Source: an uncultured Fidelibacterota bacterium
GTDB taxonomy: Bacteria; Fidelibacterota; Marinisomatia; Marinisomatales; UBA1611
DNA: 64,000 nt
Direction of reading: 5' to 3'
NCBI GenBank assembly: GCA_913040915.1
Contig: CAJWHW010000002.1
Span: 1-64,000 of the forward strand
Position numbers and translations under genes: made by a program. Shown here piece by piece: positions 26,229-61,073 of this stretch (positions are counted from its first letter, which is position 1; each line of letters opens with the position of its first letter). Under the pieces are notes generated by a model, which was not told where the DNA came from, searched no databases, and saw nothing but the letters and a program-made list of their open reading frames with translations.

Positions 26229-29200
26229 TATAGAATCCATATTGATTATTGGTGCCGGTCCCATTGTAATTGGTCAAGCTTGTGAGTTTGACTATTCCGG
26301 GACCCAGGCCACACGGGCGTTGAAGGAGGAAGGGTATCGTGTAATTCTGGTAAATTCTAACCCTGCTACGATCATGACTGATCCGAATCTTGCAGATGCG
26401 ACTTTCATCGAACCCATTACCCCGGAGTATGTGGAAGCTATCATTCAAAAAGAAAAACCGGATGCTATTCTTCCAACTGTAGGTGGGCAGACTGGTCTCA
26501 ATATTTCAATGGCGCTTCACAAAAAAGGAATCTTGGAAAAATACGGGGTAAAATTGATTGGAGCTCAGGTTGAAGCCATAGATAAAGCAGAAGATCGTGA
26601 ACAATTTAAAAAAGCCATGGATGAGGTCGGTATTGATACGGCTCAGGGCGGATTCATCCATACATGGGATGAGGCGGAAGCTCTGCTAGATGAAATGGAA
26701 TTCCCAATTATAATCCGACCTTCATTCACCATGGGTGGAACCGGTGGTTCTGTAGCCTATAATAATGAGGAATTTCAGGATTTGATTGAAAATGGACTAC
26801 ATGCTAGCCCCATAACAGAAGTATTAGTTGAGGAATCCTTACTTGGATGGAAAGAATTTGAGCTTGAAGTCATTCGGGATAGTTCAGACAATGCAATCAT
26901 CATTTGTTCCATAGAAAATATAGATCCCATGGGAGTCCATACCGGTGATTCGGTCACCGTTGCTCCGGCTATGACGTTGACTGATAAGGAATACCAGCAG
27001 ATGCGTAATTGGGCGATTTTATGTTTGCGAACTATTGGTGTTGAGACTGGTGGTTCTAATGTACAGTTTGCTGTTAATCCGGATAATGGACGTATGATAA
27101 TAATTGAAATGAACCCAAGGGTCAGCCGTTCATCTGCCCTAGCATCCAAAGCAACAGGATTCCCAATTGCTAAAGTGGCGGCAAAACTGGCTGTGGGGTT
27201 TACCTTGGATGAACTACCCAACGATATCACCGGTAAGACTCTTGCTGCTTTTGAGCCCACCATTGATTATATCATAATAAAAGTACCTCGATTTGATTTT
27301 GAAAAATTTCCATCAGCGTCAGGACATCTAGGTGTTCAGATGCAAAGTGTTGGAGAAGTAATGTCCATTGGGCGCACATTTAGAGAATCGATTCAAAAAG
27401 CCTATCGTTCATTGGAGGTTGGATTGGATGGGCTCGAACCCAAACCTGTAGCCAAAGGAGATCCAGATGTGAACCGAGCTCGCTCATTAGACATGTCTAC
27501 CTTACGGCATGGAACAGCTTTTCGATTGCTCAAAATCTGGCAAGCCTTTAAAGAAGGGCAATCAATAGAAGATGTTTTCAATGTAACAAAGATCGATCAC
27601 TGGTTCTTGAACCAAATTTCTATGTTGACCAATCAAATAAAAAATAAATCCCTAATTGAATTAAAAGAGAATGGATTTTCAGATATGCAAATCAGTCGAA
27701 TTTTGAATAAAACTGAAAAGGAGATTCGGGCACAGCGCAAAGCTGAAAATGTTTTGCCATCTTTTAAAGTTGTTGATACCTGTGCTGCTGAATTCGTAGC
27801 CCAAACCCCCTATTGTTATTCCACCTATGATGAAGAAAATGAGATCCAACCCTTAGATGGGAAAAAAGTCATAATTTTAGGAGGCGGACCTAATCGCATT
27901 GGACAGGGGATTGAGTTTGATTATTGCTGTGTACAGGCAGTTTTTGGATTAAAAGATCAGAGTTATAAAACCATTATGGTGAATTGTAATCCGGAAACAG
28001 TTAGTACTGATTTTGATTTAGTAGACCGACTTTATTTTGAACCGGTGACGTATGAAGATGTACTCAATATTGTTGAGTTTGAAAAGCCAGATGGTGTATT
28101 AGTCCAGTTTGGGGGCCAAACACCTCTAAAAATTGCAAATGCTCTAGCAGATGCCGGTGTACCCGTAATTGGTACATCTCCTGAAAATATTGACCTAGCG
28201 GAAGATCGAGAAAAATTTGGGTCAATATTAAAAAAGCTGAATATATTATGTCCTAAATATGGTACTGGCCGAACATTAGATGAAGTAGTAACAGTTGCAG
28301 AGACAATTGGATTTCCTATTTTAGCTCGCCCCAGTTATGTTTTGGGAGGCCGAGCTATGGAAATCGTTTACTCAAAGAAACAGTTAATTGATTATATATC
28401 TCGAAATGCTGATGTGACGGAAGGGCATCCTATATTGATTGACCAATTTTTAGAGGATGCTTTTGAATTTGATGTAGATGCGCTTTGTGATGGTGAGATA
28501 GTTCACATCGGTGCTGTAATGCAGCATATTGAAGAGGCAGGAATTCATTCTGGCGATTCTGCCTGCGTGTTGCCACCATATCGCATTACTACAGAAGCTA
28601 TGGATGAAATTATCCGGATTACTCAGGATCTGGCTCTAGAATTAAAAGTAATTGGTTTGATTAATCTTCAATTTGCGTATAAGGATGGACAAATCTTTGT
28701 TTTGGAAGTAAATCCAAGGGCTAGTCGAACAGTTCCCTTTGTTAGTAAAACAACCGATGTTCCTTTGGCGCGGATCGCTGCCCAATTGGCAGTAGGTGCA
28801 AAACTATCCGAATTTGAATTAAAACCTTGGGATGGCAATTCCCATATAGCGGTAAAGGAAGCAGTGCTACCATTCAATAAATTTCCGGAAGAATCCATTT
28901 TTTTGAGCCCCGAAATGAAATCCACAGGAGAAGTAATGGGTATTTCCAATACATTAGGGGATGCATTTAAGCGAGCATCTATAAGTGCCGGGAATATCAT
29001 ACCTAACACAGGAATTGTTTTTTTATCAGTGAATGATTCCGATAAACTAGATGTCATACCCATCGCACGGGACTTAAAGGAAATTGGTTTTGATCTAGTG
29101 GCAACTTTTGGAACAGCGAAAGAACTTCGTAGAAATGGTATCCATTCAGAAACAGTCTTTAAAGTGGGTGAGGGGCGACCCAATGTTGTGGATGGTATCA

Positions 29201-52920: not shown

Positions 52921-54016
52921 GGATATATCCTTTTTGAACAAGTAGTTCTGCCATAAGAATGGCACCACCAGCGGCACCTCGAACTGTATTGTGCGACAAT
53001 CCAATAAATCGAATATTAAAAAACATATCCTCTGTTATTCGCCCAACTGTTACAGTCATGCCATTTCCCAAATCTCGATCTAATTTAGGTTGGGGACGAT
53101 CTATTTCATCCAAAACAATAATAGGAATTTTTGGGGCTGATGGGAAATGCATAGCTTGTGGTTCTCCTATAAATGAAGATAAAATTAATTTGAACTCATC
53201 TATAGTAGGGGCAATATCAACAAATCCAATATGTACTACAGCAGTATGTCCATCTATTACTGGTACACGTGTACATACTGCATTTATAGCTAATCCCTTG
53301 AATTGCTCAATACCGCTTTCCGTTACTTCACCAAATATTTTTAATGGTTCTTTTTCTGTCTTTTCTTCTTCTCCACCAATATAGGGTACAACATTATCTT
53401 TTAAATCTGGATTGGTTAATGCTTTATAGCCAGCACCTGACAATGCTTGAAGGGTGGTCACTTGTACGCGATCCACCGGAAACCCTGCTTGTTTTAATGC
53501 TTCTAAAACAATAATATATGATTGAATTGAACAATTAGGTTTAACTGCTACAAAACCAGAGTTTGGTAAATTTCGAATCATCTGTTGGATAGGAATCACC
53601 TCTGCATGATGAGGATTTATTTCAGGAATGATCATAGGTACATCACGGGTTTGACGATTAGCAGAACTAGTGGAAATAACAGCGTATCCTTTTTTTGCAT
53701 ACCCAAATTCAAAATCACGTGTATCCTGTTTTTTTTGTAAGTCTAACGCAGAAAATACACAGACTACATCCTCAGGTATTGATTCAAAATCATTCACATC
53801 CCGAACAATCAAGTTAGCAATTGAATCAGGAATCTGTGTATCTATAGCCCATTTCTCACTAGTTGCTTCCCTGTAAGTTTTTCCGGAAGAATGCTTGGAT
53901 GCAGCAACGTCTATAACGTCAAACCATGGGTGGTTTTCCAATAATTTTAAGAAGTTTTGACCGACCATTCCAGTAGCACCTAAAACACTTACTTTAATAT
54001 TTTTTTTTAGTAACAT
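52910..54016 (-). CDS. asd: Aspartate-semialdehyde dehydrogenase
   Basis: LGATGMVGQ, PEIN, PNCS, QALSGAG, RVPV.DGH, HNTVRGAAG. Confidence 0.96.
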   Translation of the reverse strand: MLLKKNIKVSVLGATGMVGQNFLKLLENHPWFDVIDVAASKHSSGKTYREATSEKWAIDTQIPDSIANLIVRDVNDFESIPEDVVCVFSALDLQKKQDTRDFEFGYAKKGYAVISTSSANRQTRDVPMIIPEINPHHAEVIPIQQMIRNLPNSGFVAVKPNCSIQSYIIVLEALKQAGFPVDRVQVTTLQALSGAGYKALTNPDLKDNVVPYIGGEEEKTEKEPLKIFGEVTESGIEQFKGLAINAVCTRVPVIDGHTAVVHIGFVDIAPTIDEFKLILSSFIGEPQAMHFPSAPKIPIIVLDEIDRPQPKLDRDLGNGMTVTVGRITEDMFFNIRFIGLSHNTVRGAAGGAILMAELLVQKGYIHVQ

Positions 54017-56391
54017 TTTAAAATATCTCCTAATACACCAGCAGCAGTGACTTCAGCTCCGGCACCATGTCCTTTTATAACCATGGGGGTATCTTTATAT
54101 CTTTTAGTCGTAAACATAATAAAGTTTTCACGTCCATTTTGATGATAAAAAGGGTTTTTAATTCCCACTGCTTTCAATTTCACTGTTACATTTTGCCCAT
54201 CCCAGGTGGCAATATATCGTAACGCCTTATCCTCTCTAGAAGCTGAAATATACATGTTTAAAAATTGGTCATCATATTTGGATAATTGCTCTAAAAACTC
54301 ATCAATGGAAAATGCCGGATCCATATTTTCTGGAATTAAGCTTTGAATAGATACATCATCAAACTCTAATTGTGCACCAGTCTCTCGGGCCAAAATGAGA
54401 ATTTTTCTTCCCACATCCACACCATTCAAGTCATCTCTTGGGTCTGGTTCTGTGTACCCGTTTTCCTGTGCATATTTTACCAACTTACTAAATGCAATTG
54501 AACCATCAAATCGACTGAATAAATAGCTTAGCGTCCCAGACATAATTCCTTCAATTTTTTCAACTGTATCACCTGTTGCCAATAAAGTTTGTAATGTTTC
54601 AACAATAGGGAGACCTGCGCCAACATTTGTTTCATATTTAAATTGAGAACCGGCAGCATTTGAATTTTCACGAATTAAATCATAATAATTCTGATTCATG
54701 GAATTGGCCAGTTTGCTAGCAGATACAACAGAAATTCCTTTTTTTAAAATGTTTGCTATTTTTTTTGCGATTATAGGTGATGATGTTACATCCACAAATA
54801 CGGGGTTAAGAGACTGAGCTGCATAAGAAATAAATGATTCTAAATCGACTGTATCACCACTTGCTAATTCTTCTACATAATTTTGGGAATCTAATCCATT
54901 TGGATTAATAATCATTTTTTGACTATTTATTATACCGCATATATTTATGGAATTATTATCCTGAATTAACTTTATTAAATCTGAGCCAACCAACCCAACC
55001 CCAGCAATAAATACATTTATAATAGCATTGTTTGAAAAAATATATTGATGCAAAGATCGAATGGCTGATTTGACTTCATCATTTTTAATAATAAAGGATA
55101 TATTTCTTTCCGAAGATCCTTGAGCAATAGCAACCACATTCACATTTTTTTCTCCAAGAACGGAAAATAGTTTCCCGGAAATTCCAGGTGTATGGCGCAT
55201 CCCCTCGCCTACAACAGCAATGAGAGAAAGATCATTTTCAATATTAATAGTATCTATAAAATGGTTTTTCAGTTCAAACAAAAATTCTTTCTTCAAAAGT
55301 GATTCAGCTAGATCAACTTCTTTAGGTTGGATAGCAAAACAAATGGAATGCTCGCTAAACACTTGAGATACAAGAATAATATTTATTTTCTTTTTGGCTA
55401 GTGCATCAAATACACGTCCAATAACTCCAAAACGTCCCACCATACCGGCTCCTTGGAATCGGATTAAGGAAACATTATACAAAGATGAGATACCCACGGC
55501 AAAATGGTCATCCCTTGCACGGTCCTGTGTAATAGCCGTTCCTGGATTATCCGGTTCAAATGTATTTTTAATACGGATCGGAATAGATTTATATAAAGCA
55601 GGAATCATAGTGGGTGGGAAAATAACTTTTGCCCCGGCATGAGCCAATTCCATGGCTTCTTCATAAGTAATATGAGAAATGGTTTTTGCATCAAAAACCA
55701 CATTGGGATCGGCAGACAAAATACCGTTTACATCAGTCCAGATTTCTATTTCATTTACATCTAAAGCAGCGCCAAAAATGGATGCGGTATAGTCTGAACC
55801 GCTCCTTCCAAAAGTTGTTGTTTCTCCTAATTCAGTGGCACCAATGAATCCAGTAATTATCCTTGTTTTTGATTCATCTTTCCATTCATTACGAATATTA
55901 TTGTAAGATTTTTGATAATGAACAAATGCATTTCCGAAATGATCATCTGTTAAAATAACCTTTCGCGCATCCAAATATGTTGCATTTATTCCTTTTTCGA
56001 TACATACTTCCGTAATAATTATTGCAGATAATTGCTCACCAATACTTAGTGCTGCATCTTTTAATTGCAGTGTACATTTTTTCTTTTTGGCAATTGTACT
56101 TAATATAAGACATAATTCATTTTCTATTTCTTGGATAGTATTAAACAATAGTTCTTTTTCAAGATGAAGATCATGAATAGTTTTCCGATGCCTATCAAAA
56201 AACAATTGTAAATCATTATTATAATCAGCGTCCCGTTCTGCACATGAGATTAATTGAATGAGTTGATCCGTAATGCCACCAAACGCAGATACAACTACAC
56301 CACATGGATGTTCAGATGAAATAAGCTGCACCACTTGCTCAATTCGTTGGGACGTTTTTACGGATGATCCGCCAAATTTGAGAATTTTCAT
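54007..56391 (-). CDS. thrA: Bifunctional aspartokinase/homoserine dehydrogenase
   Basis: KFGGSS, GRSGSD, two ACT domains, G.GLVG, ETNVGAGLP, EPDPRDDL. Confidence 0.96.
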   Translation of the reverse strand: MKILKFGGSSVKTSQRIEQVVQLISSEHPCGVVVSAFGGITDQLIQLISCAERDADYNNDLQLFFDRHRKTIHDLHLEKELLFNTIQEIENELCLILSTIAKKKKCTLQLKDAALSIGEQLSAIIITEVCIEKGINATYLDARKVILTDDHFGNAFVHYQKSYNNIRNEWKDESKTRIITGFIGATELGETTTFGRSGSDYTASIFGAALDVNEIEIWTDVNGILSADPNVVFDAKTISHITYEEAMELAHAGAKVIFPPTMIPALYKSIPIRIKNTFEPDNPGTAITQDRARDDHFAVGISSLYNVSLIRFQGAGMVGRFGVIGRVFDALAKKKINIILVSQVFSEHSICFAIQPKEVDLAESLLKKEFLFELKNHFIDTINIENDLSLIAVVGEGMRHTPGISGKLFSVLGEKNVNVVAIAQGSSERNISFIIKNDEVKSAIRSLHQYIFSNNAIINVFIAGVGLVGSDLIKLIQDNNSINICGIINSQKMIINPNGLDSQNYVEELASGDTVDLESFISYAAQSLNPVFVDVTSSPIIAKKIANILKKGISVVSASKLANSMNQNYYDLIRENSNAAGSQFKYETNVGAGLPIVETLQTLLATGDTVEKIEGIMSGTLSYLFSRFDGSIAFSKLVKYAQENGYTEPDPRDDLNGVDVGRKILILARETGAQLEFDDVSIQSLIPENMDPAFSIDEFLEQLSKYDDQFLNMYISASREDKALRYIATWDGQNVTVKLKAVGIKNPFYHQNGRENFIMFTTKRYKDTPMVIKGHGAGAEVTAAGVLGDILKCY

Positions 56392-56465
56392 TTTAATACT
56401 AATTAAATAGGTTTATCGTTAGTCGAAATATTACGGTTAATAAAAGTTTTACATGCTAAAAAGTG

Positions 56466-56645
56466 CTAATTGGAAATCAAAATATTACCAAATTCCTTTA
56501 ATGAGAATAGGTTCACAGCATGATCCGCATTGTTGAATATATATGATGTTGAAGAAAAAATTCGGACTGCTCTAGCGTTTGTGCCTGCCATCGGTTCCTG
56601 CCTGGTATGGAACTGTAATTTATCAAAATGATTATTATTGCACAT
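56466..56645 (-). pseudogene. metY: N-terminal remnant of O-acetylhomoserine sulfhydrylase (metY)
   Basis: 59-codon ORF MCNNNHFDKLQFHTRQEPMAGTNARAVRIFSSTSYIFNNADHAVNLFSLKEFGNILISN* with AAGGA SD; matches the MetY N-terminal pattern F.TLQLHAGQ...T.ARAVPIY.TTSY.F....HAA.LF.L.E.GNIY. Confidence 0.85.
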
Positions 56646-56786
56646 AGATATTTTTCCTTATTTTGTGTTATTTATTGGTTTGTTACTAATATTTATGAAT
56701 TAGTTATTCATAATAAATACAAAACGTAATTGATAGCTTGTTGGGATAATATGTTAGAGGGCAAGAGACATTACAGCAGTATCTGT

Positions 56787-56898
56787 CTTATCAGTCTTCT
56801 AAAAAACTCGAAGCAGGAATTAGCACCTTGAACCGCATTGTACGGAGATGGTTGCTAAGGTATCTTAGGGCCTGATCCCTCCACCTTTCTGGATAAAA
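56787..56898 (-). ncRNA. SAM-I (S-box) riboswitch
   Basis: Minus strand TTATCCAGAAAGGTGGAGGGATCAGGCCCTAAGATACCTTAGCAACC...GGTGCTAATTCC...GATAAG: P1, kink-turn P2, GCAACC and GGTGCTAA conserved; sits upstream of met/thr genes. Confidence 0.95.
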
Positions 56899-57052
56899 TC
56901 CGGTACTGATCTGTCAAAAAGCATAAAAAACTTCTTTTAAATGTTAAATATGAAAATAAAATAATGCAAGATAACATTAATATATTTAACTATACTCCAT
57001 CATTTTCTATAATTTTTTTATAAATAAAAGGAATATGATTTATATTTGAATG

Positions 57053-57081
57053 TTGCCCTTTATAAGAATTTGTTATAAACT
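57053..57081 (+). promoter_or_regulatory. Putative sigma70 promoter of the asn leader
   Basis: TTGCCC-17 nt-TAAACT, ending 11 nt before the leader ATG. Confidence 0.5.
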
Positions 57082-57092
57082 TTTAGCCAATT

Positions 57093-57176
57093 ATGAACAT
57101 ACGACGACGCCATAACCATCATCTTAACACTTTGATTAATAACAATAATAATATGAGTGGGGGCGAAGCTTTGTAA
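57093..57176 (+). CDS. Asparagine-rich leader peptide (27 aa)
   Basis: MNIRRRHNHHLNTLINNNNNMSGGEAL*; 8 Asn, 5 consecutive; directly upstream of a terminator and asnB. Confidence 0.85.
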   Translation: MNIRRRHNHHLNTLINNNNNMSGGEAL

Positions 57177-57196
57177 CCATAAGGTTAAGCTTTAAT

Positions 57197-57236
57197 AAAA
57201 ACCTCCAGGGATTTTAATTCATGGGGGTTTTTTTTT
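57197..57236 (+). terminator. Attenuator intrinsic terminator upstream of asnB
   Basis: AAAAACCTCCA...TGGGGG followed by 9 T, 23 nt before the asnB start. Confidence 0.88.
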
Positions 57237-57259
57237 ATATCAAATAAAAGGAAAAAATT

Positions 57260-58849
57260 ATGTGTGGCATATTTTTATATAAAGGTAGAAAACAAGATTG
57301 GAATTCATTGGAACCTGATATTAAACGGATTGGTTATCGCGGCCCAGATAATACACACCATGAAATGATTGGCAATGATATATTATTAGCTTTCCATCGA
57401 TTAGCTATCATGGGCACAAGTGAAATGGGCGATCAACCGATGAAACATCCCAATGATGCTTCGCTCACTCTGATCTGTAATGGTGAAATTTATAATTATA
57501 AAAATTTAGCTAAAAAATATAGCTTTAATTTGAAGACAGGCTCTGATTGTGAAATTATTTTATTCATGTTTAAACAATTTGGTATTCAAAGAACTGTAAA
57601 GGAATTAGATGGCGTTTTCATGTTCGTATTATATGAAGCAAATACTGGTCTACTTTTTGCTGGCCGGGATCCCATGGGTGTTCGTCCGGGGTTTATCGGT
57701 CGAAATGGAGATGAGATTATGATTGCATCAGAAGCAAAATCCATGGTGAATCATTCTTCAAGTATTATTCCATTTCCCCCAGGGCATTGGTGGTGTTCGA
57801 ACCTTTCAGATATATTCAATCCTTATTTTCTTTATAATAAAATCAAAATTCAAGAAAACACCGAAGAAGATATTTGTAATAAAATCCAGTTATTATTAAC
57901 AGCTGCAGTTAAGAAACGGCTTATGACAGAACGTGATATTGGGTGTTTATTATCTGGTGGTTTGGATTCGAGTTTAATTTGTGCTCTTGTGAATAAGTAT
58001 TATGAAGGACCAAAACTAAATACATTTTCTATTGGACTTGTAGGGAGCATTGACCTTGAATATGCACAAGATGTGTCCTCTCATTTGAAATCAAAACACC
58101 ACCAGATAGAAGTATCTCAAAATGAGTTTTTAGATGCAATTGAAACTGTGATTTATAATATTGAATCTTATGATACTACTACAGTCAGAGCCAGTGTAGG
58201 CAATTACCTCGTTTCAAAATATATTTCAGATAATTCTGATTGCAAGGTGATTTTTAACGGTGATGGCAGTGATGAGGTATGTTGTGGATATGTATATTTA
58301 AGGAATGCACCATCACCAGTTGATTTGCAAAAAGAAAATGAAAGGCTGGTTGAAGAGATTCATTATTTTGATGTGCTGCGCTCAGACCGCAGTATTAGTT
58401 CTAATGGTTTGGAAGCACGGACGCCTTTTTTGGATAAAACATTTGTGAAGTATTATTTATCAATTCCTGCGGAATTAAAGTTATTTGATGGGGCACAAAG
58501 ATTAGAAAAATATTTATTAAGAAAAGCTTTTGATGATCAGGGACTTTTACCAGATAAAGTTTTATGGCGTCGGAAATGTGCTTTTTCAGATGGTGTAAGT
58601 TCGCAGAATAATTCCTGGCATCATATTATCCAATCATTTGTAGACCAAAAAATTAGTGATGAAGAATTTCAGCGAGAAAGCACTAAGATCACACATTGCA
58701 CTCCTCAATTAAAAGAGAGTTATTACTATCGTAAAGTATTCAATAGCTTCTTTGAGAATCATGAGAATTTAATTCCTCATTTCTGGATGCCTAAGTGGTC
58801 CAATACGATAGACCCTTCAGCTAGAGAATTAAGTGGGTACAAAGAATAA
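57260..58849 (+). CDS. asnB: Glutamine-hydrolysing asparagine synthetase
   Basis: MCGI Ntn start, RGPD, NGEIYN, LSGGLDSS, PFLD, RRK.AFSDG, DPSAR. Confidence 0.96.
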   Translation: MCGIFLYKGRKQDWNSLEPDIKRIGYRGPDNTHHEMIGNDILLAFHRLAIMGTSEMGDQPMKHPNDASLTLICNGEIYNYKNLAKKYSFNLKTGSDCEIILFMFKQFGIQRTVKELDGVFMFVLYEANTGLLFAGRDPMGVRPGFIGRNGDEIMIASEAKSMVNHSSSIIPFPPGHWWCSNLSDIFNPYFLYNKIKIQENTEEDICNKIQLLLTAAVKKRLMTERDIGCLLSGGLDSSLICALVNKYYEGPKLNTFSIGLVGSIDLEYAQDVSSHLKSKHHQIEVSQNEFLDAIETVIYNIESYDTTTVRASVGNYLVSKYISDNSDCKVIFNGDGSDEVCCGYVYLRNAPSPVDLQKENERLVEEIHYFDVLRSDRSISSNGLEARTPFLDKTFVKYYLSIPAELKLFDGAQRLEKYLLRKAFDDQGLLPDKVLWRRKCAFSDGVSSQNNSWHHIIQSFVDQKISDEEFQRESTKITHCTPQLKESYYYRKVFNSFFENHENLIPHFWMPKWSNTIDPSARELSGYKE

Positions 58850-58944
58850 ATTATTTAATTATATTAATAATAAAATAAAATATATTTATTATTTGTTAAA
58901 TTAAATTAAATGAATAATATTATAGACAGGAAATAATTAAAATA

Positions 58945-59112
58945 ATGTACGATACTGCAATAAATAAAATTAGCATTACGGGGATGAAGCCAATTGGGCT
59001 TTGTGACCGCGAAATTCTATGCCAAATGGTTACTATATTGCAATCCATTATTCGGTACCTAAGTATATCAATTTTGGTACTTATTATTACCTTCGCCGTT
59101 TTGATCGCCTAG
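58945..59112 (+). CDS. Putative branched-chain amino-acid leader peptide (55 aa; alternative start 59026, 28 aa)
   Basis: Ends MVTILQSIIRYLSISILVLIITFAVLIA*; 16 of the last 28 residues are I/L/V; 3' end forms the arm of a 19-bp hairpin; upstream of ilv/leu operon. Confidence 0.62.
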   Translation: MYDTAINKISITGMKPIGLCDREILCQMVTILQSIIRYLSISILVLIITFAVLIA

Positions 59113-59148
59113 TTAAAACAAATACATTCAGGTGATTCAAACGGTGAA
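59092..59148 (+). promoter_or_regulatory. Long hairpin overlapping the end of the ilv leader ORF
   Basis: TTCGCCGTTTTGATCGCCT pairs with AGGTGATTCAAACGGTGAA (19 positions, 1 mismatch, 3 G-U pairs that favour the + strand). Confidence 0.7.
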
Positions 59149-59255
59149 AAAACTCTCCCCGATTAATTAGTCCATCCCTGAAGTATCTAATCTGGCAATT
59201 CGAACTGGTAAAATAGTTTGCGTAGTATTTATTGTTGCGTTGAAAAAGGGACTTG

Positions 59256-59338
59256 ATGAGTTTAGATCAAATAAAGTAGGATTTGAACATGCGTCCCACA
59301 GAAGCCCTTTGCGGGCTGCGAGCACAGTATTAAAGTAG
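59256..59338 (+). pseudogene. Probable internally deleted ilvD remnant
   Basis: After AAAGGGA SD: MSLDQIK, frameshift, VGFEHASHRSPLRA, then ASTVLK*; resembles IlvD start MRSD.IK.GFERAPHRSLLRA joined to an IlvD-like end (SAS.GAVLK). Confidence 0.6.
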
Positions 59339-59345
59339 TGGAGAC

Positions 59346-61073
59346 ATGAAAATGGAAAAACGAACTCTAACAGGAGCAGAAATTATTTGGGAATGTGTGA
59401 CTAAAGAAGATGTGGGTGTGGTTTTTGGATATCCAGGAGGTGCAATCCTACCGGCATATGATGCTTTGAATAATTATCGGGATAAAATTCACCATGTGTT
59501 AGTGCGCCATGAACAGGGCGCGACACATATGGCTGATGGGTATGCACGTGCTAGTGGAAATGTGGGGGTAGCTATAGCGACATCAGGACCAGGAGCAACC
59601 AATATGGTCACAGGTTTGGCTACTGCAAAATTAGATTCTGTCCCCATTGTATGTATTACAGGTCAAGTTCCCCGGACTGCCATTGGATCAGATGCGTTTC
59701 AAGAAGTAGATATTTATGGTACAGTTTTTCCGGTGACAAAACATAGTTATTTAGTTATGGATATAAAAGACTTGGCCCCAACTATTAAGGAAGCATTTGC
59801 AGTGGCACGTTCCGGTAGGCCTGGTCCGGTTCTGATTGATATCCCTAAAGATATCCAAACTGAAACAATAGAATTTATTTATCCCAGTGAGCCTGTGAGA
59901 TTGCCGGGAAATAATAAACTACAAATCTCCACTGAAAAACAAATTAACGATGCAATCAACTTAATAAATAATGCAAAAAAACCAGTTATTCTTGCAGGAC
60001 ATGGTATTCTTCTATCTGGCGCTTCTCGAGAAGTGATAAAATTGGCAGAAACTGCATCAATTCCCATTGGCTGGACTTTATTGGGTTCAGGAAGTGTCCC
60101 TGCCAGCCACCCACTGAATATGGGTATGATGGGCATGCATGGCGAATTTGCAGTGAATAATGCGATCCAAGATGCGGATCTATTAATTGCCTGTGGAATG
60201 CGTTTTGATGATCGTGTTACAGGTAATGTAAAAACCTATTCACCCAATTCAAAAAAAATTCACATTGAAATTGATCCATCAGAAATCAATAAGAATGTCC
60301 CTGCCGATGTAGGTATTGCCGGAGATCTACGAACTATTTTACTTCAACTTCTTCCGTTGGTAAAACAACGGAAAAATGAAGACTGGCTTAAAATAATTTC
60401 TTCTTGGCAATCTGAATCTATGGAAAGAGATATCATCAATGTCCAAACAGATACCCTCTACGGGGCCCAAGTGATTCGTGATATCTGGAAAGAGACCAGG
60501 GGTGATGCGCTTATTGTAACAGATGTAGGCCAGCACCAAATGCTTGAAGCACAGTATTATGCTCATGAAGAGCCCAACACATTATTAACCTCTGGTGGTT
60601 TGGGGACGATGGGTTTCAGTTTACCGGCGGCAATAGGTGCTAGTTTCACAAATAGAAATAAAGATATTTGGGTTATTGTCGGAGATGGTAGTATCCAGAT
60701 GACAATTACTGAATTGGCTACTGCAGTACAAGAGAATGCTAATATAAAAATTGCCATAATTAATAATGGTTACTTGGGCATGGTTCGTCAGTGGCAGCAG
60801 CTATTTTATGATGCCCGTTATGCTGAAACACCCATTAGTAGCCCCGATTATTTAAAGATTTCAGAGGCGTATGGTCTGCCAGGCCATAGGGTACAAACCC
60901 GTGCTGAGATTCCTAATGTAATTAATATGGCAAAAAAAAATGAAGGCCCCGTCCTTATAGAGTTTGTAGTGGAGCAACATGATATGGTTTATCCTATGGT
61001 GCCAGCTGGCGCTGATTTGAATGCTATGATCAACAGGCCGAAAAATAAGCAATTTCAAGAAATAGAAGAATAA
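59346..61073 (+). CDS. ilvB: Acetolactate synthase large subunit
   Basis: FGYPGGA, RHEQGA.HMADGY, TSGPGATN, RFDDR, GDGS..M...E, GMVRQWQ. Confidence 0.97.
   Translation: MKMEKRTLTGAEIIWECVTKEDVGVVFGYPGGAILPAYDALNNYRDKIHHVLVRHEQGATHMADGYARASGNVGVAIATSGPGATNMVTGLATAKLDSVPIVCITGQVPRTAIGSDAFQEVDIYGTVFPVTKHSYLVMDIKDLAPTIKEAFAVARSGRPGPVLIDIPKDIQTETIEFIYPSEPVRLPGNNKLQISTEKQINDAINLINNAKKPVILAGHGILLSGASREVIKLAETASIPIGWTLLGSGSVPASHPLNMGMMGMHGEFAVNNAIQDADLLIACGMRFDDRVTGNVKTYSPNSKKIHIEIDPSEINKNVPADVGIAGDLRTILLQLLPLVKQRKNEDWLKIISSWQSESMERDIINVQTDTLYGAQVIRDIWKETRGDALIVTDVGQHQMLEAQYYAHEEPNTLLTSGGLGTMGFSLPAAIGASFTNRNKDIWVIVGDGSIQMTITELATAVQENANIKIAIINNGYLGMVRQWQQLFYDARYAETPISSPDYLKISEAYGLPGHRVQTRAEIPNVINMAKKNEGPVLIEFVVEQHDMVYPMVPAGADLNAMINRPKNKQFQEIEE

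Follow-up and report, generated by a model that had tools for sequence, protein, structure and literature searches.

Ribosome-mediated transcription attenuators, as described for the trpL (RF00513), hisL (RF00514), thrL (RF00506), pheL (RF01859), leuL and ilv leaders of Escherichia coli and Salmonella, combine an open reading frame (ORF) that is short and rich in codons for the end product with an antiterminator and a terminator that share one strand. Some of these leaders are multivalent; the thrL (Thr/Ile) and ilv (Ile/Leu/Val) leaders carry several kinds of control codon, and the additional codons correspond to amino acids that the pathway yields. Here we analyze a leader of the same general plan that precedes asnB, a gene for asparagine synthetase, in an uncultured Fidelibacterota bacterium. 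The window analyzed, to which all coordinates refer, comprises positions 1 to 64,000 of contig CAJWHW010000002.1 (GCA_913040915.1), from a genome that is 85% complete. In our assessment, this leader is probably a ribosome-mediated transcription attenuator of asnB and a natural hybrid of two leaders, and it is highly likely that the family of asnB leaders to which it belongs senses asparagine.

The asnB leader shares the short ORF and the common switching strand of the classical attenuators. It differs from them in its Asn control codons, in the asnB gene downstream, in the lack of a Shine-Dalgarno site, in being predicted to be leaderless or nearly so and, for this copy, in being a His/Asn hybrid. 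Several kinds of control codon occur in one leader, as in thrL and the ilv leaders; however, the His and Arg codons of the hybrid appear to have come by deletion and have no evident link to AsnB. The Asn T-boxes of Firmicutes and the AsnC control of E. coli asnA share the signal or pathway, that is, asparagine supply. T-boxes recognize uncharged tRNA by direct binding and AsnC is a protein that binds DNA, whereas the sensing element of the asnB leader is predicted to be a translated ORF. No T-box match was found at E values up to 5 within 56300-59400.

Two further systems offer partial parallels. The his attenuator has an extra hairpin between the control region and the terminator (PMC1183508), which the inner hairpin of the asnB leader resembles. 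The mycobacterial polycysteine attenuators (10.1101/834739) sense a single amino acid by ribosome stalling at a series of cognate codons in a short ORF that is leaderless, as the asnB leader is predicted to be, but they control access to the downstream ribosome-binding site (RBS) and were shown not to work through transcription termination, whereas the asnB leader carries an intrinsic terminator; no mention of asparagine was found in that paper. The sequence-only reading of this DNA, which first proposed an Asn attenuator here, knew of no characterized example, and none was found in Rfam or in the literature searched, nor was any natural hybrid attenuator found in that literature, with supplements and most subscription papers outside its coverage. 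The main texts of PMC2965389 and PMC4833913 do not mention asparagine, although their supplements could list such leaders. In Rfam, no family reached its gathering score for the leader; the best was His_leader (RF00514), at 24.4 bits against 49, and the his leaders of relatives also fall below that threshold (26.6-31.7 bits). Asparagine would be added to the amino acids read by leader-peptide attenuation, by a mechanism that is itself textbook.

Conservation of the leader ahead of asnB

The components named in the sequence-only reading, namely the ORF, its Asn run, the TGGGGG and CCTCCA motifs, the inner helices, the terminator and the asnB ATG at 57260, were all recovered at the same positions (Table 1). 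The downstream protein scores 354.8 bits with TIGR01536 (cut-off 267.1) and 496.8 bits with PRK09431 (PRK09431.1, asparagine synthase B; cut-off 499), and its closest homologs with a named source come from Marinimicrobia, Neomarinimicrobiota or Fidelibacterota. The leader peptide has no NCBIfam family, and its exact sequence is absent from the protein collection searched. Five consecutive Asn residues occur in only one of the 21,098 short ATG ORFs of the genome, which is the leader ORF itself. The same ORF ranks first among the 28, out of 24,642 short genome ORFs, that have a terminator-like hairpin downstream. An ORF with this run is therefore not a chance occurrence. The terminator ends 23 nucleotides (nt) before the asnB start.

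Orthologs of asnB were gathered from relatives, the phylum and a genome collection. After 26 duplicates were merged and one distant paralog, six loci without a 5' end and one locus short of upstream DNA were left out, 58 distinct loci were kept. An Asn-rich leader ORF, a run of G residues in its last codons (the G-box), an inner hairpin and a terminator lie upstream of 40 of these. In 39 of the leaders the ORF has 22-36 codons, of which 5-12 are Asn codons, and ends 73-93 nt before asnB; the fortieth (L043) contains the same element behind an inserted inverted repeat. Asn accounts for 311 of the 1080 codons in the 39 leaders (28.8%), compared to 5.8% in the long ORFs of this genome, and the second commonest residue, Leu, reaches 8.4%. 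The Asn codons comprise 226 AAT and 85 AAC, and 35 of the 39 leaders mix both, so that the in-frame conservation with synonymous variation anticipated by the sequence-only reading is borne out among relatives. Outside the Asn codons the peptides vary freely, and the Asn runs differ in length by whole codons.

The association of this element with asnB extends beyond the aligned set. The terminator (a hairpin of -9 kcal/mol or better ahead of at least five U residues) and the Asn ORF were scored independently over the 58 loci: 37 have both, 18 neither, two only the terminator and one only the ORF, where kin are not independent. A leader-first pattern gave at least 116 matches in metagenomes, and among the matches listed, the 19 with both a short ORF and a terminator all precede AsnB. 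Likewise, in a scan of 150 genomes of the phylum, asnB leaders account for all of the eight best matches to the leader model (49-107 bits), six of these being training-set members; weaker matches in that scan were inspected only for the locus L116 and for this genome. The element accompanies asnB across many different upstream neighbours, and in a quick AsnB tree the leader-bearing loci are scattered, with several losses or gains. Two relatives (L004 and L006) retain a decayed remnant in the last 130 nt before asnB, in which the Asn run, the G-box and the terminator are all eroded. The 40 homologs, their compensatory changes and the decayed and interrupted copies provide natural variation for the design of tests.

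Six loci flagged by the automatic rule proved to be false: in L091-L095 the flagged ORFs are the ends of upstream genes, and in L043 the flagged ORF lies within the inserted inverted repeat, the true leader being further upstream. The L043 insertion is an inverted-repeat element of ~160 nt with a short duplicated flank, located between the intact terminator and the asnB RBS, 20-180 nt upstream of asnB. Three other matches to the leader model in this genome are ordinary gene-end terminators, one of them with a Met-run frame overlapping an Asp-rich carboxy terminus. No second Asn leader was found in this genome: asnS lies directly behind another gene, and none is evident before tRNA-Asn.

RNA folds and modelled stalling

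All 39 leaders share a common antiterminator fold, in which the G-box base-pairs with the C-box, the C-rich 5' arm of the terminator, around a hairpin that spans the stop codon. This pairing is present in the minimum-energy fold of every leader. In 39 of 39 leaders the G-box consists of 3-5 successive G residues, but its reading frame differs between the two subgroups into which the leaders fall (Ser-Gly-Gly in subgroup A, to which this copy belongs, and Val-Gly-x in subgroup B); because of this difference in frame, it is taken to be kept as RNA rather than as peptide. The inner hairpin is a candidate pause or spacer hairpin, and its native halves fold better together than with halves from other species in 38 of 39 leaders. 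In subgroup B, of which 23 of the 26 members could be aligned, 14 of 22 pairs show two-sided changes, a level reached in none of 500 shuffles. The covarying helices are the protector hairpin, the inner hairpin (four of six pairs two-sided) and the terminator. The subgroup B hairpin that overlaps the G-box has seven base pairs, four with two-sided changes, and by analogy fits the 1:2 protector of classical attenuators. In this copy, the predicted folding energies are -15.7 kcal/mol for the antiterminator (z -1.99) and -14.9 kcal/mol for the terminator.

These structures suggest how the switch may operate. RNA polymerase would start a few bases ahead of the leader ATG, and a ribosome would load without a Shine-Dalgarno site. 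When charged tRNA-Asn is plentiful, the ribosome would reach the last codons and mask the G-box, leaving the C-box free for the terminator, so that transcription would stop at about 57234-57236. When tRNA-Asn is uncharged, the ribosome would stall in the Asn run, the G-box would capture the emerging C-box, the terminator would come too late and asnB would be transcribed. In the hybrid copy, stalls at the inherited His codons (7, 9 and 10) and Arg codons (4-6) would open the switch as well, and the weaker terminator would allow a higher basal read-through.

A stall model, in which the ribosome hides the transcript as far as 12 nt beyond the first base of the A-site codon, switches in the manner that the sequence-only reading had proposed. 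Across the 39 leaders the modelled antiterminator exceeds 0.5 at 291 of 311 Asn stall positions, and in none of the 39 with the ribosome at the stop codon; the E. coli thrL, trpL and hisL leaders act alike in the same model. For this copy the modelled switching holds for footprints of 9, 12 and 15 nt, except at the last one or two Asn codons, and the per-codon model gives an antiterminator pairing of 0.84-1.00 for stalls at Arg 4-6 and His 7, 9 and 10. The hybrid leader is therefore predicted to respond to His shortage as well, and perhaps to Arg shortage. In the absence of a ribosome, where the protector of classical attenuators gives super-attenuation, the modelled antiterminator still forms in 24 of the 39 leaders, and reaches 0.19 in this copy. 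The Asn codons, the intrinsic terminator, the mutually exclusive helices and the modelled spacing agree with the defining features of the classical attenuators, with a clear protector only in subgroup B.

Gene content makes the proposed signal plausible. This genome encodes an asparaginyl-tRNA synthetase (AsnRS) and a tRNA-Asn(GTT), and neither GatB nor AsnA was found in it (85% complete); among asnB-bearing relatives, AsnRS is present in 50 of 55 and GatB in two of 55. With AsnRS present and GatB not found, the charging of tRNA-Asn should report free asparagine, going by gene content only. In many marine Marinimicrobia, then, asnB would most likely be switched on when asparagine is short.

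Translation of the leader appears to begin in an unusual setting. A Shine-Dalgarno-like word precedes only two of the 39 leaders, compared to 32 of the 39 asnB starts, and in 31 of 39 the best sigma70-like site stops 5, 10 or 11 nt short of the leader ATG (a site at 4-12 nt occurs in 11% of shuffles). This suggests that initiation is leaderless or nearly so. The site predicted for this copy (57053-57081) aligns with a promoter-like site before hisL in the relatives G032 and G006 and would imply a 5' untranslated region of ~4-5 nt; it has only 8 of 12 consensus matches and was not listed by a generic promoter scan. The leaders thus seem to lack Shine-Dalgarno sites and to be transcribed from at or near their ATG, and yet to control an intrinsic terminator.

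Origin of the His/Asn leader and alternative readings

The leader ORF of this copy joins two sources. The 3' part is near-identical to subgroup A leaders, whereas the 5' part matches no asn leader; a DNA search placed it in six relatives, upstream of hisG. A His-rich leader and a terminator belonging to it precede hisG at seven of the family's eight hisG loci, and hisG itself occurs in just 8 of 54 family genomes. On the left, 56480-57122 aligns contiguously with metY, the S-adenosylmethionine (SAM) riboswitch, the promoter and hisL of G032 (82% identity over 663 nt), and on the right, 57124-58831 aligns with the asn leader plus asnB from close relatives. The reading frame is preserved across the join, which follows codon 10 and at which both sides share 1-2 nt. 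In relatives the SAM riboswitch adjoins the his promoter, and in L255 and L260 it is divergent from hisL. The sequence-only reading had taken the whole ORF for an Asn-sensing leader; this stands for 57124-57176, but the promoter and codons 1-10, including three Arg, three His and two of the eight Asn codons, derive from a his leader. Nor is the element a his-operon leader, since the 3' part of hisL, its terminator and hisG are gone from this genome.

The arrangement in another relative, G024, indicates how the two parts may have met. On a single contig and strand, G024 carries hisL, hisG, hisD to hisF, argG, argH, proB, proA, proC, the asn leader and asnB, and the span between the two breakpoints is 12,878 nt. 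Of the 12 ORFs of at least 140 codons within it, ten have no match in this genome and two match only distant paralogs (41% and 28%). A deletion of ~12.9 kb (his, argGH and proBAC) is therefore well supported by the alignments; it brought the his promoter, with codons 1-10 of hisL, into frame with the final 17 codons, the hairpins and the terminator of the asn leader. Further deletions flank the locus, of metY-metA on the left and of ilvD on the right. The metY stub (the intact gene of relatives is typed as an O-acetylhomoserine sulfhydrylase) has 10 non-synonymous and 8 synonymous codon changes, compared to 93 and 151 in asnB. It appears to be the scar of a neighbouring deletion of most of metY together with metA, and dates the rearranged region as older than the assembly. 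Thus, one deletion within an amino acid biosynthesis cluster can exchange the promoter and control codons between attenuators and still yield a plausible switch, which would be a simple route to new or multivalent specificity.

Several observations weigh against an Asn attenuator at this locus or in the family. The element is missing in 18 of the 58 orthologs. The fold of the 208-nt region surpasses those of shuffles by a moderate margin only (z -1.87), and a simple terminator scan called no terminator at the site, probably because the stem carries a G.U pair and a G.A mismatch. The long alternative hairpin of the sequence-only reading is conserved, but its outer G-box:C-box helix hardly varies and, in both subgroups, covaries no more than shuffles do, and a leader's own G-box and C-box partners beat foreign ones in only 29 of 39. 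Similarly, the covarying stems expected by that reading are found for the protector, inner and terminator helices of subgroup B, but no helix covaries significantly in subgroup A (sequences 84% alike), in which there is also no consistent protector hairpin. At equilibrium, the terminator prevails in the full-length RNA in nearly all cases, also when a ribosome is stalled (mean 0.97), as it does in the E. coli controls; since the terminator is the more stable final structure, antitermination must be kinetic. The barrier for refolding from antiterminator to terminator has a median of 3.9 kcal/mol (first codon of the longest run), compared to 5.8-11.9 in the E. coli controls; at the best codon it is 5.5 kcal/mol in subgroup A and 7.85 in subgroup B. 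For this copy the barrier is 6.9 kcal/mol. With such modest barriers the dynamic range may be small. With regard to the hybrid, the His/Asn junction is found in one of 233 genomes of the order, in one assembly only, and its terminator carries destabilizing changes (-14.9 compared to -22.1 kcal/mol in the closest relatives; third weakest of 39).

The last two points bear on the readings that accept the family and doubt this copy. Relative to G032, codons 1-10 differ at 1 of 30 nt, the asn-derived part of the ORF with the inner hairpin and linker at 1 of 77, and the terminator at 4 of 36. Four of the five differences from G032 over the 113 nt thus lie in the 36 nt of the terminator (P about 0.04), three of them destabilizing, which would be expected if the hybrid were a decaying relic and asnB largely constitutive from the old his promoter. 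The -35 box, one base further from consensus than the his promoter of G032 and G006, the shrinking of the cluster (metY, metA, his, argGH, proBAC and ilvD are gone) and the fully decayed leader in L004 and L006 point the same way. We nevertheless consider a relic unlikely: 2 of 107 nt across the ORF, G-box, inner hairpin and linker are changed relative to G032, whereas decay as fast as that of the metY stub predicts ~8 (P about 0.01, if the deletions are similar in age), and the terminator still folds and keeps its U9, with two intact relatives having weaker ones. A working and selected hybrid, in which asnB would open on His, Arg or Asn shortage and the terminator was retuned while the hybrid ORF stayed under selection, is a possibility that we advance tentatively; if true, it would be a snapshot of attenuators gaining new or multiple specificities by exchange of parts, within a leaderless family that senses Asn. 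The rarity of the junction and the incomplete genome would also suit an assembly artefact, in which case the organism itself would carry a normal asn leader, and its his operon would lie apart. This seems improbable. The 1-2 nt common at the join are too little to confuse a k-mer assembler, the loss of hisG is common in the family, and mis-assembly is disfavoured because the rest of the genome lacks the deleted genes and the metY stub is decaying, with pseudogene-like changes that a mis-join of intact DNA would not produce.

Other readings dispense with asparagine sensing altogether. In an AT-rich and AAT-rich genome, where AAT supplies most leader Asn codons (226 of 311), the run could be a microsatellite or part of a small Asn-rich protein with its own job, and the terminator could be the ordinary transcript end of a small RNA or of a gene upstream; a gene on the same strand does lie just upstream in some relatives (proC, or a gene end that we take to resemble pyruvate phosphate dikinase). 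AAC is, however, interspersed in nearly all leaders and the runs change by whole codons, the G-box persists in different frames within peptides that are otherwise free to vary, and the element travels with asnB past changing neighbours and precedes asnB in all leader-first matches listed, which makes this account very improbable. A switch that responds to UTP or to a general uncoupling of ribosome and polymerase, as pyrBI-type and stress-sensing leaders do, would fit the A/U-rich leader, and in the model any slowing of the ribosome upstream of the G-box yields the antiterminator. We give it the least credence, as the codon enrichment is specific to Asn, the regulated gene makes asparagine and His codons take the place of Asn codons in the sister leaders ahead of hisG. 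Taken together, the reading of ribosome-mediated Asn attenuation put forward from sequence alone is supported.

Locus features and related leaders

Table 1. Features of the asnB leader and its surroundings, in window coordinates
Feature	Position	Strand	Details
Predicted sigma70-type promoter	57053-57081	+	-35 TTGCCC 57053-57058, 17-nt spacer, -10 TAAACT 57076-57081; custom scan
Leader ORF	57093-57176	+	27 codons, 8 Asn; stop TAA 57174-57176
Leader ORF, 5' part from hisL (codons 1-10, Arg-Arg-Arg-His-Asn-His-His)	57093-57123	+	29/30 nt identical to his leader of G032
Leader ORF, 3' part from asnB leader (six Asn codons)	57124-57176	+	53/53 nt identical to L032 asnB leader; 52/53 to G032
Five consecutive Asn control codons (AAT AAC AAT AAT AAT)	57138-57152	+	Sequence
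G-box TGGGGG, antiterminator 5' strand	57158-57163	+	Predicted to be masked by ribosome at last codons
Inner hairpin across leader stop codon	57165-57193	+	-9.5 kcal/mol; nested in antiterminator, compatible with terminator
Intrinsic terminator	57197-57236	+	-14.9 kcal/mol; C-box CCTCCA 57202-57207 (shared switching strand); U9 57228-57236
asnB, glutamine-hydrolysing asparagine synthetase	57260-58849	+	NCBIfam profiles; RBS AGGA 57249-57252
SAM-I riboswitch, divergent from leader	56785-56899	-	Rfam RF00162, 73.8 bits (gathering score 44.4)
Decaying metY 5' stub, 55 codons	56481-56645	-	81.8% amino acid identity to MetY residues 1-55 of G032

The neighbourhood of the leader contains other traces of rearrangement. 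The SAM-I riboswitch now leads through the metY stub into thrA-asd-thrB-thrC (56369-56899), and the join left by the metY-metA deletion has about 7 nt of imperfect shared sequence. Downstream of asnB, an Ile/Leu/Val-rich short ORF lies before ilvB (58945-59345); it has no obvious U-tract terminator, is conserved in G006 and is followed by a short remnant of the deleted ilvD. The amino acid cluster at 53000-60400 has no match in G001, the only other genome of the same genus (no match was found to 55800-60400 in particular), and is 78-94% identical to genomes of the genus g12, a pattern that may reflect loss in G001 or transfer. In L004 and L006, asnB is divergent from a SAM riboswitch and metY, and this layout suggests another deletion in the same cluster.

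Other leaders of possible regulatory function were also encountered. The His-rich leaders upstream of hisG in seven of the eight family genomes (L271-L277) have 24 codons and a terminator and score below the Rfam His_leader threshold; they have no obvious Shine-Dalgarno site and start about 10-11 nt past a -10-like box. In a genome of the same phylum (G073), the locus L116 contains, at 1558-1680 on the minus strand, a leader of 40 codons, the core of which is rich in Met and Cys (five and three, respectively, among 15 codons), together with a terminator. This leader, a candidate Met/Cys-sensing attenuator, precedes a threonine-synthase-like gene and a small protein that presumably resembles a sulfur carrier. 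Finally, on contig C12 of the genome under study, the same gene end and spacer occur twice, ~1 kb apart (about 26750-27100 and 27750-28100), each followed by a different terminator.

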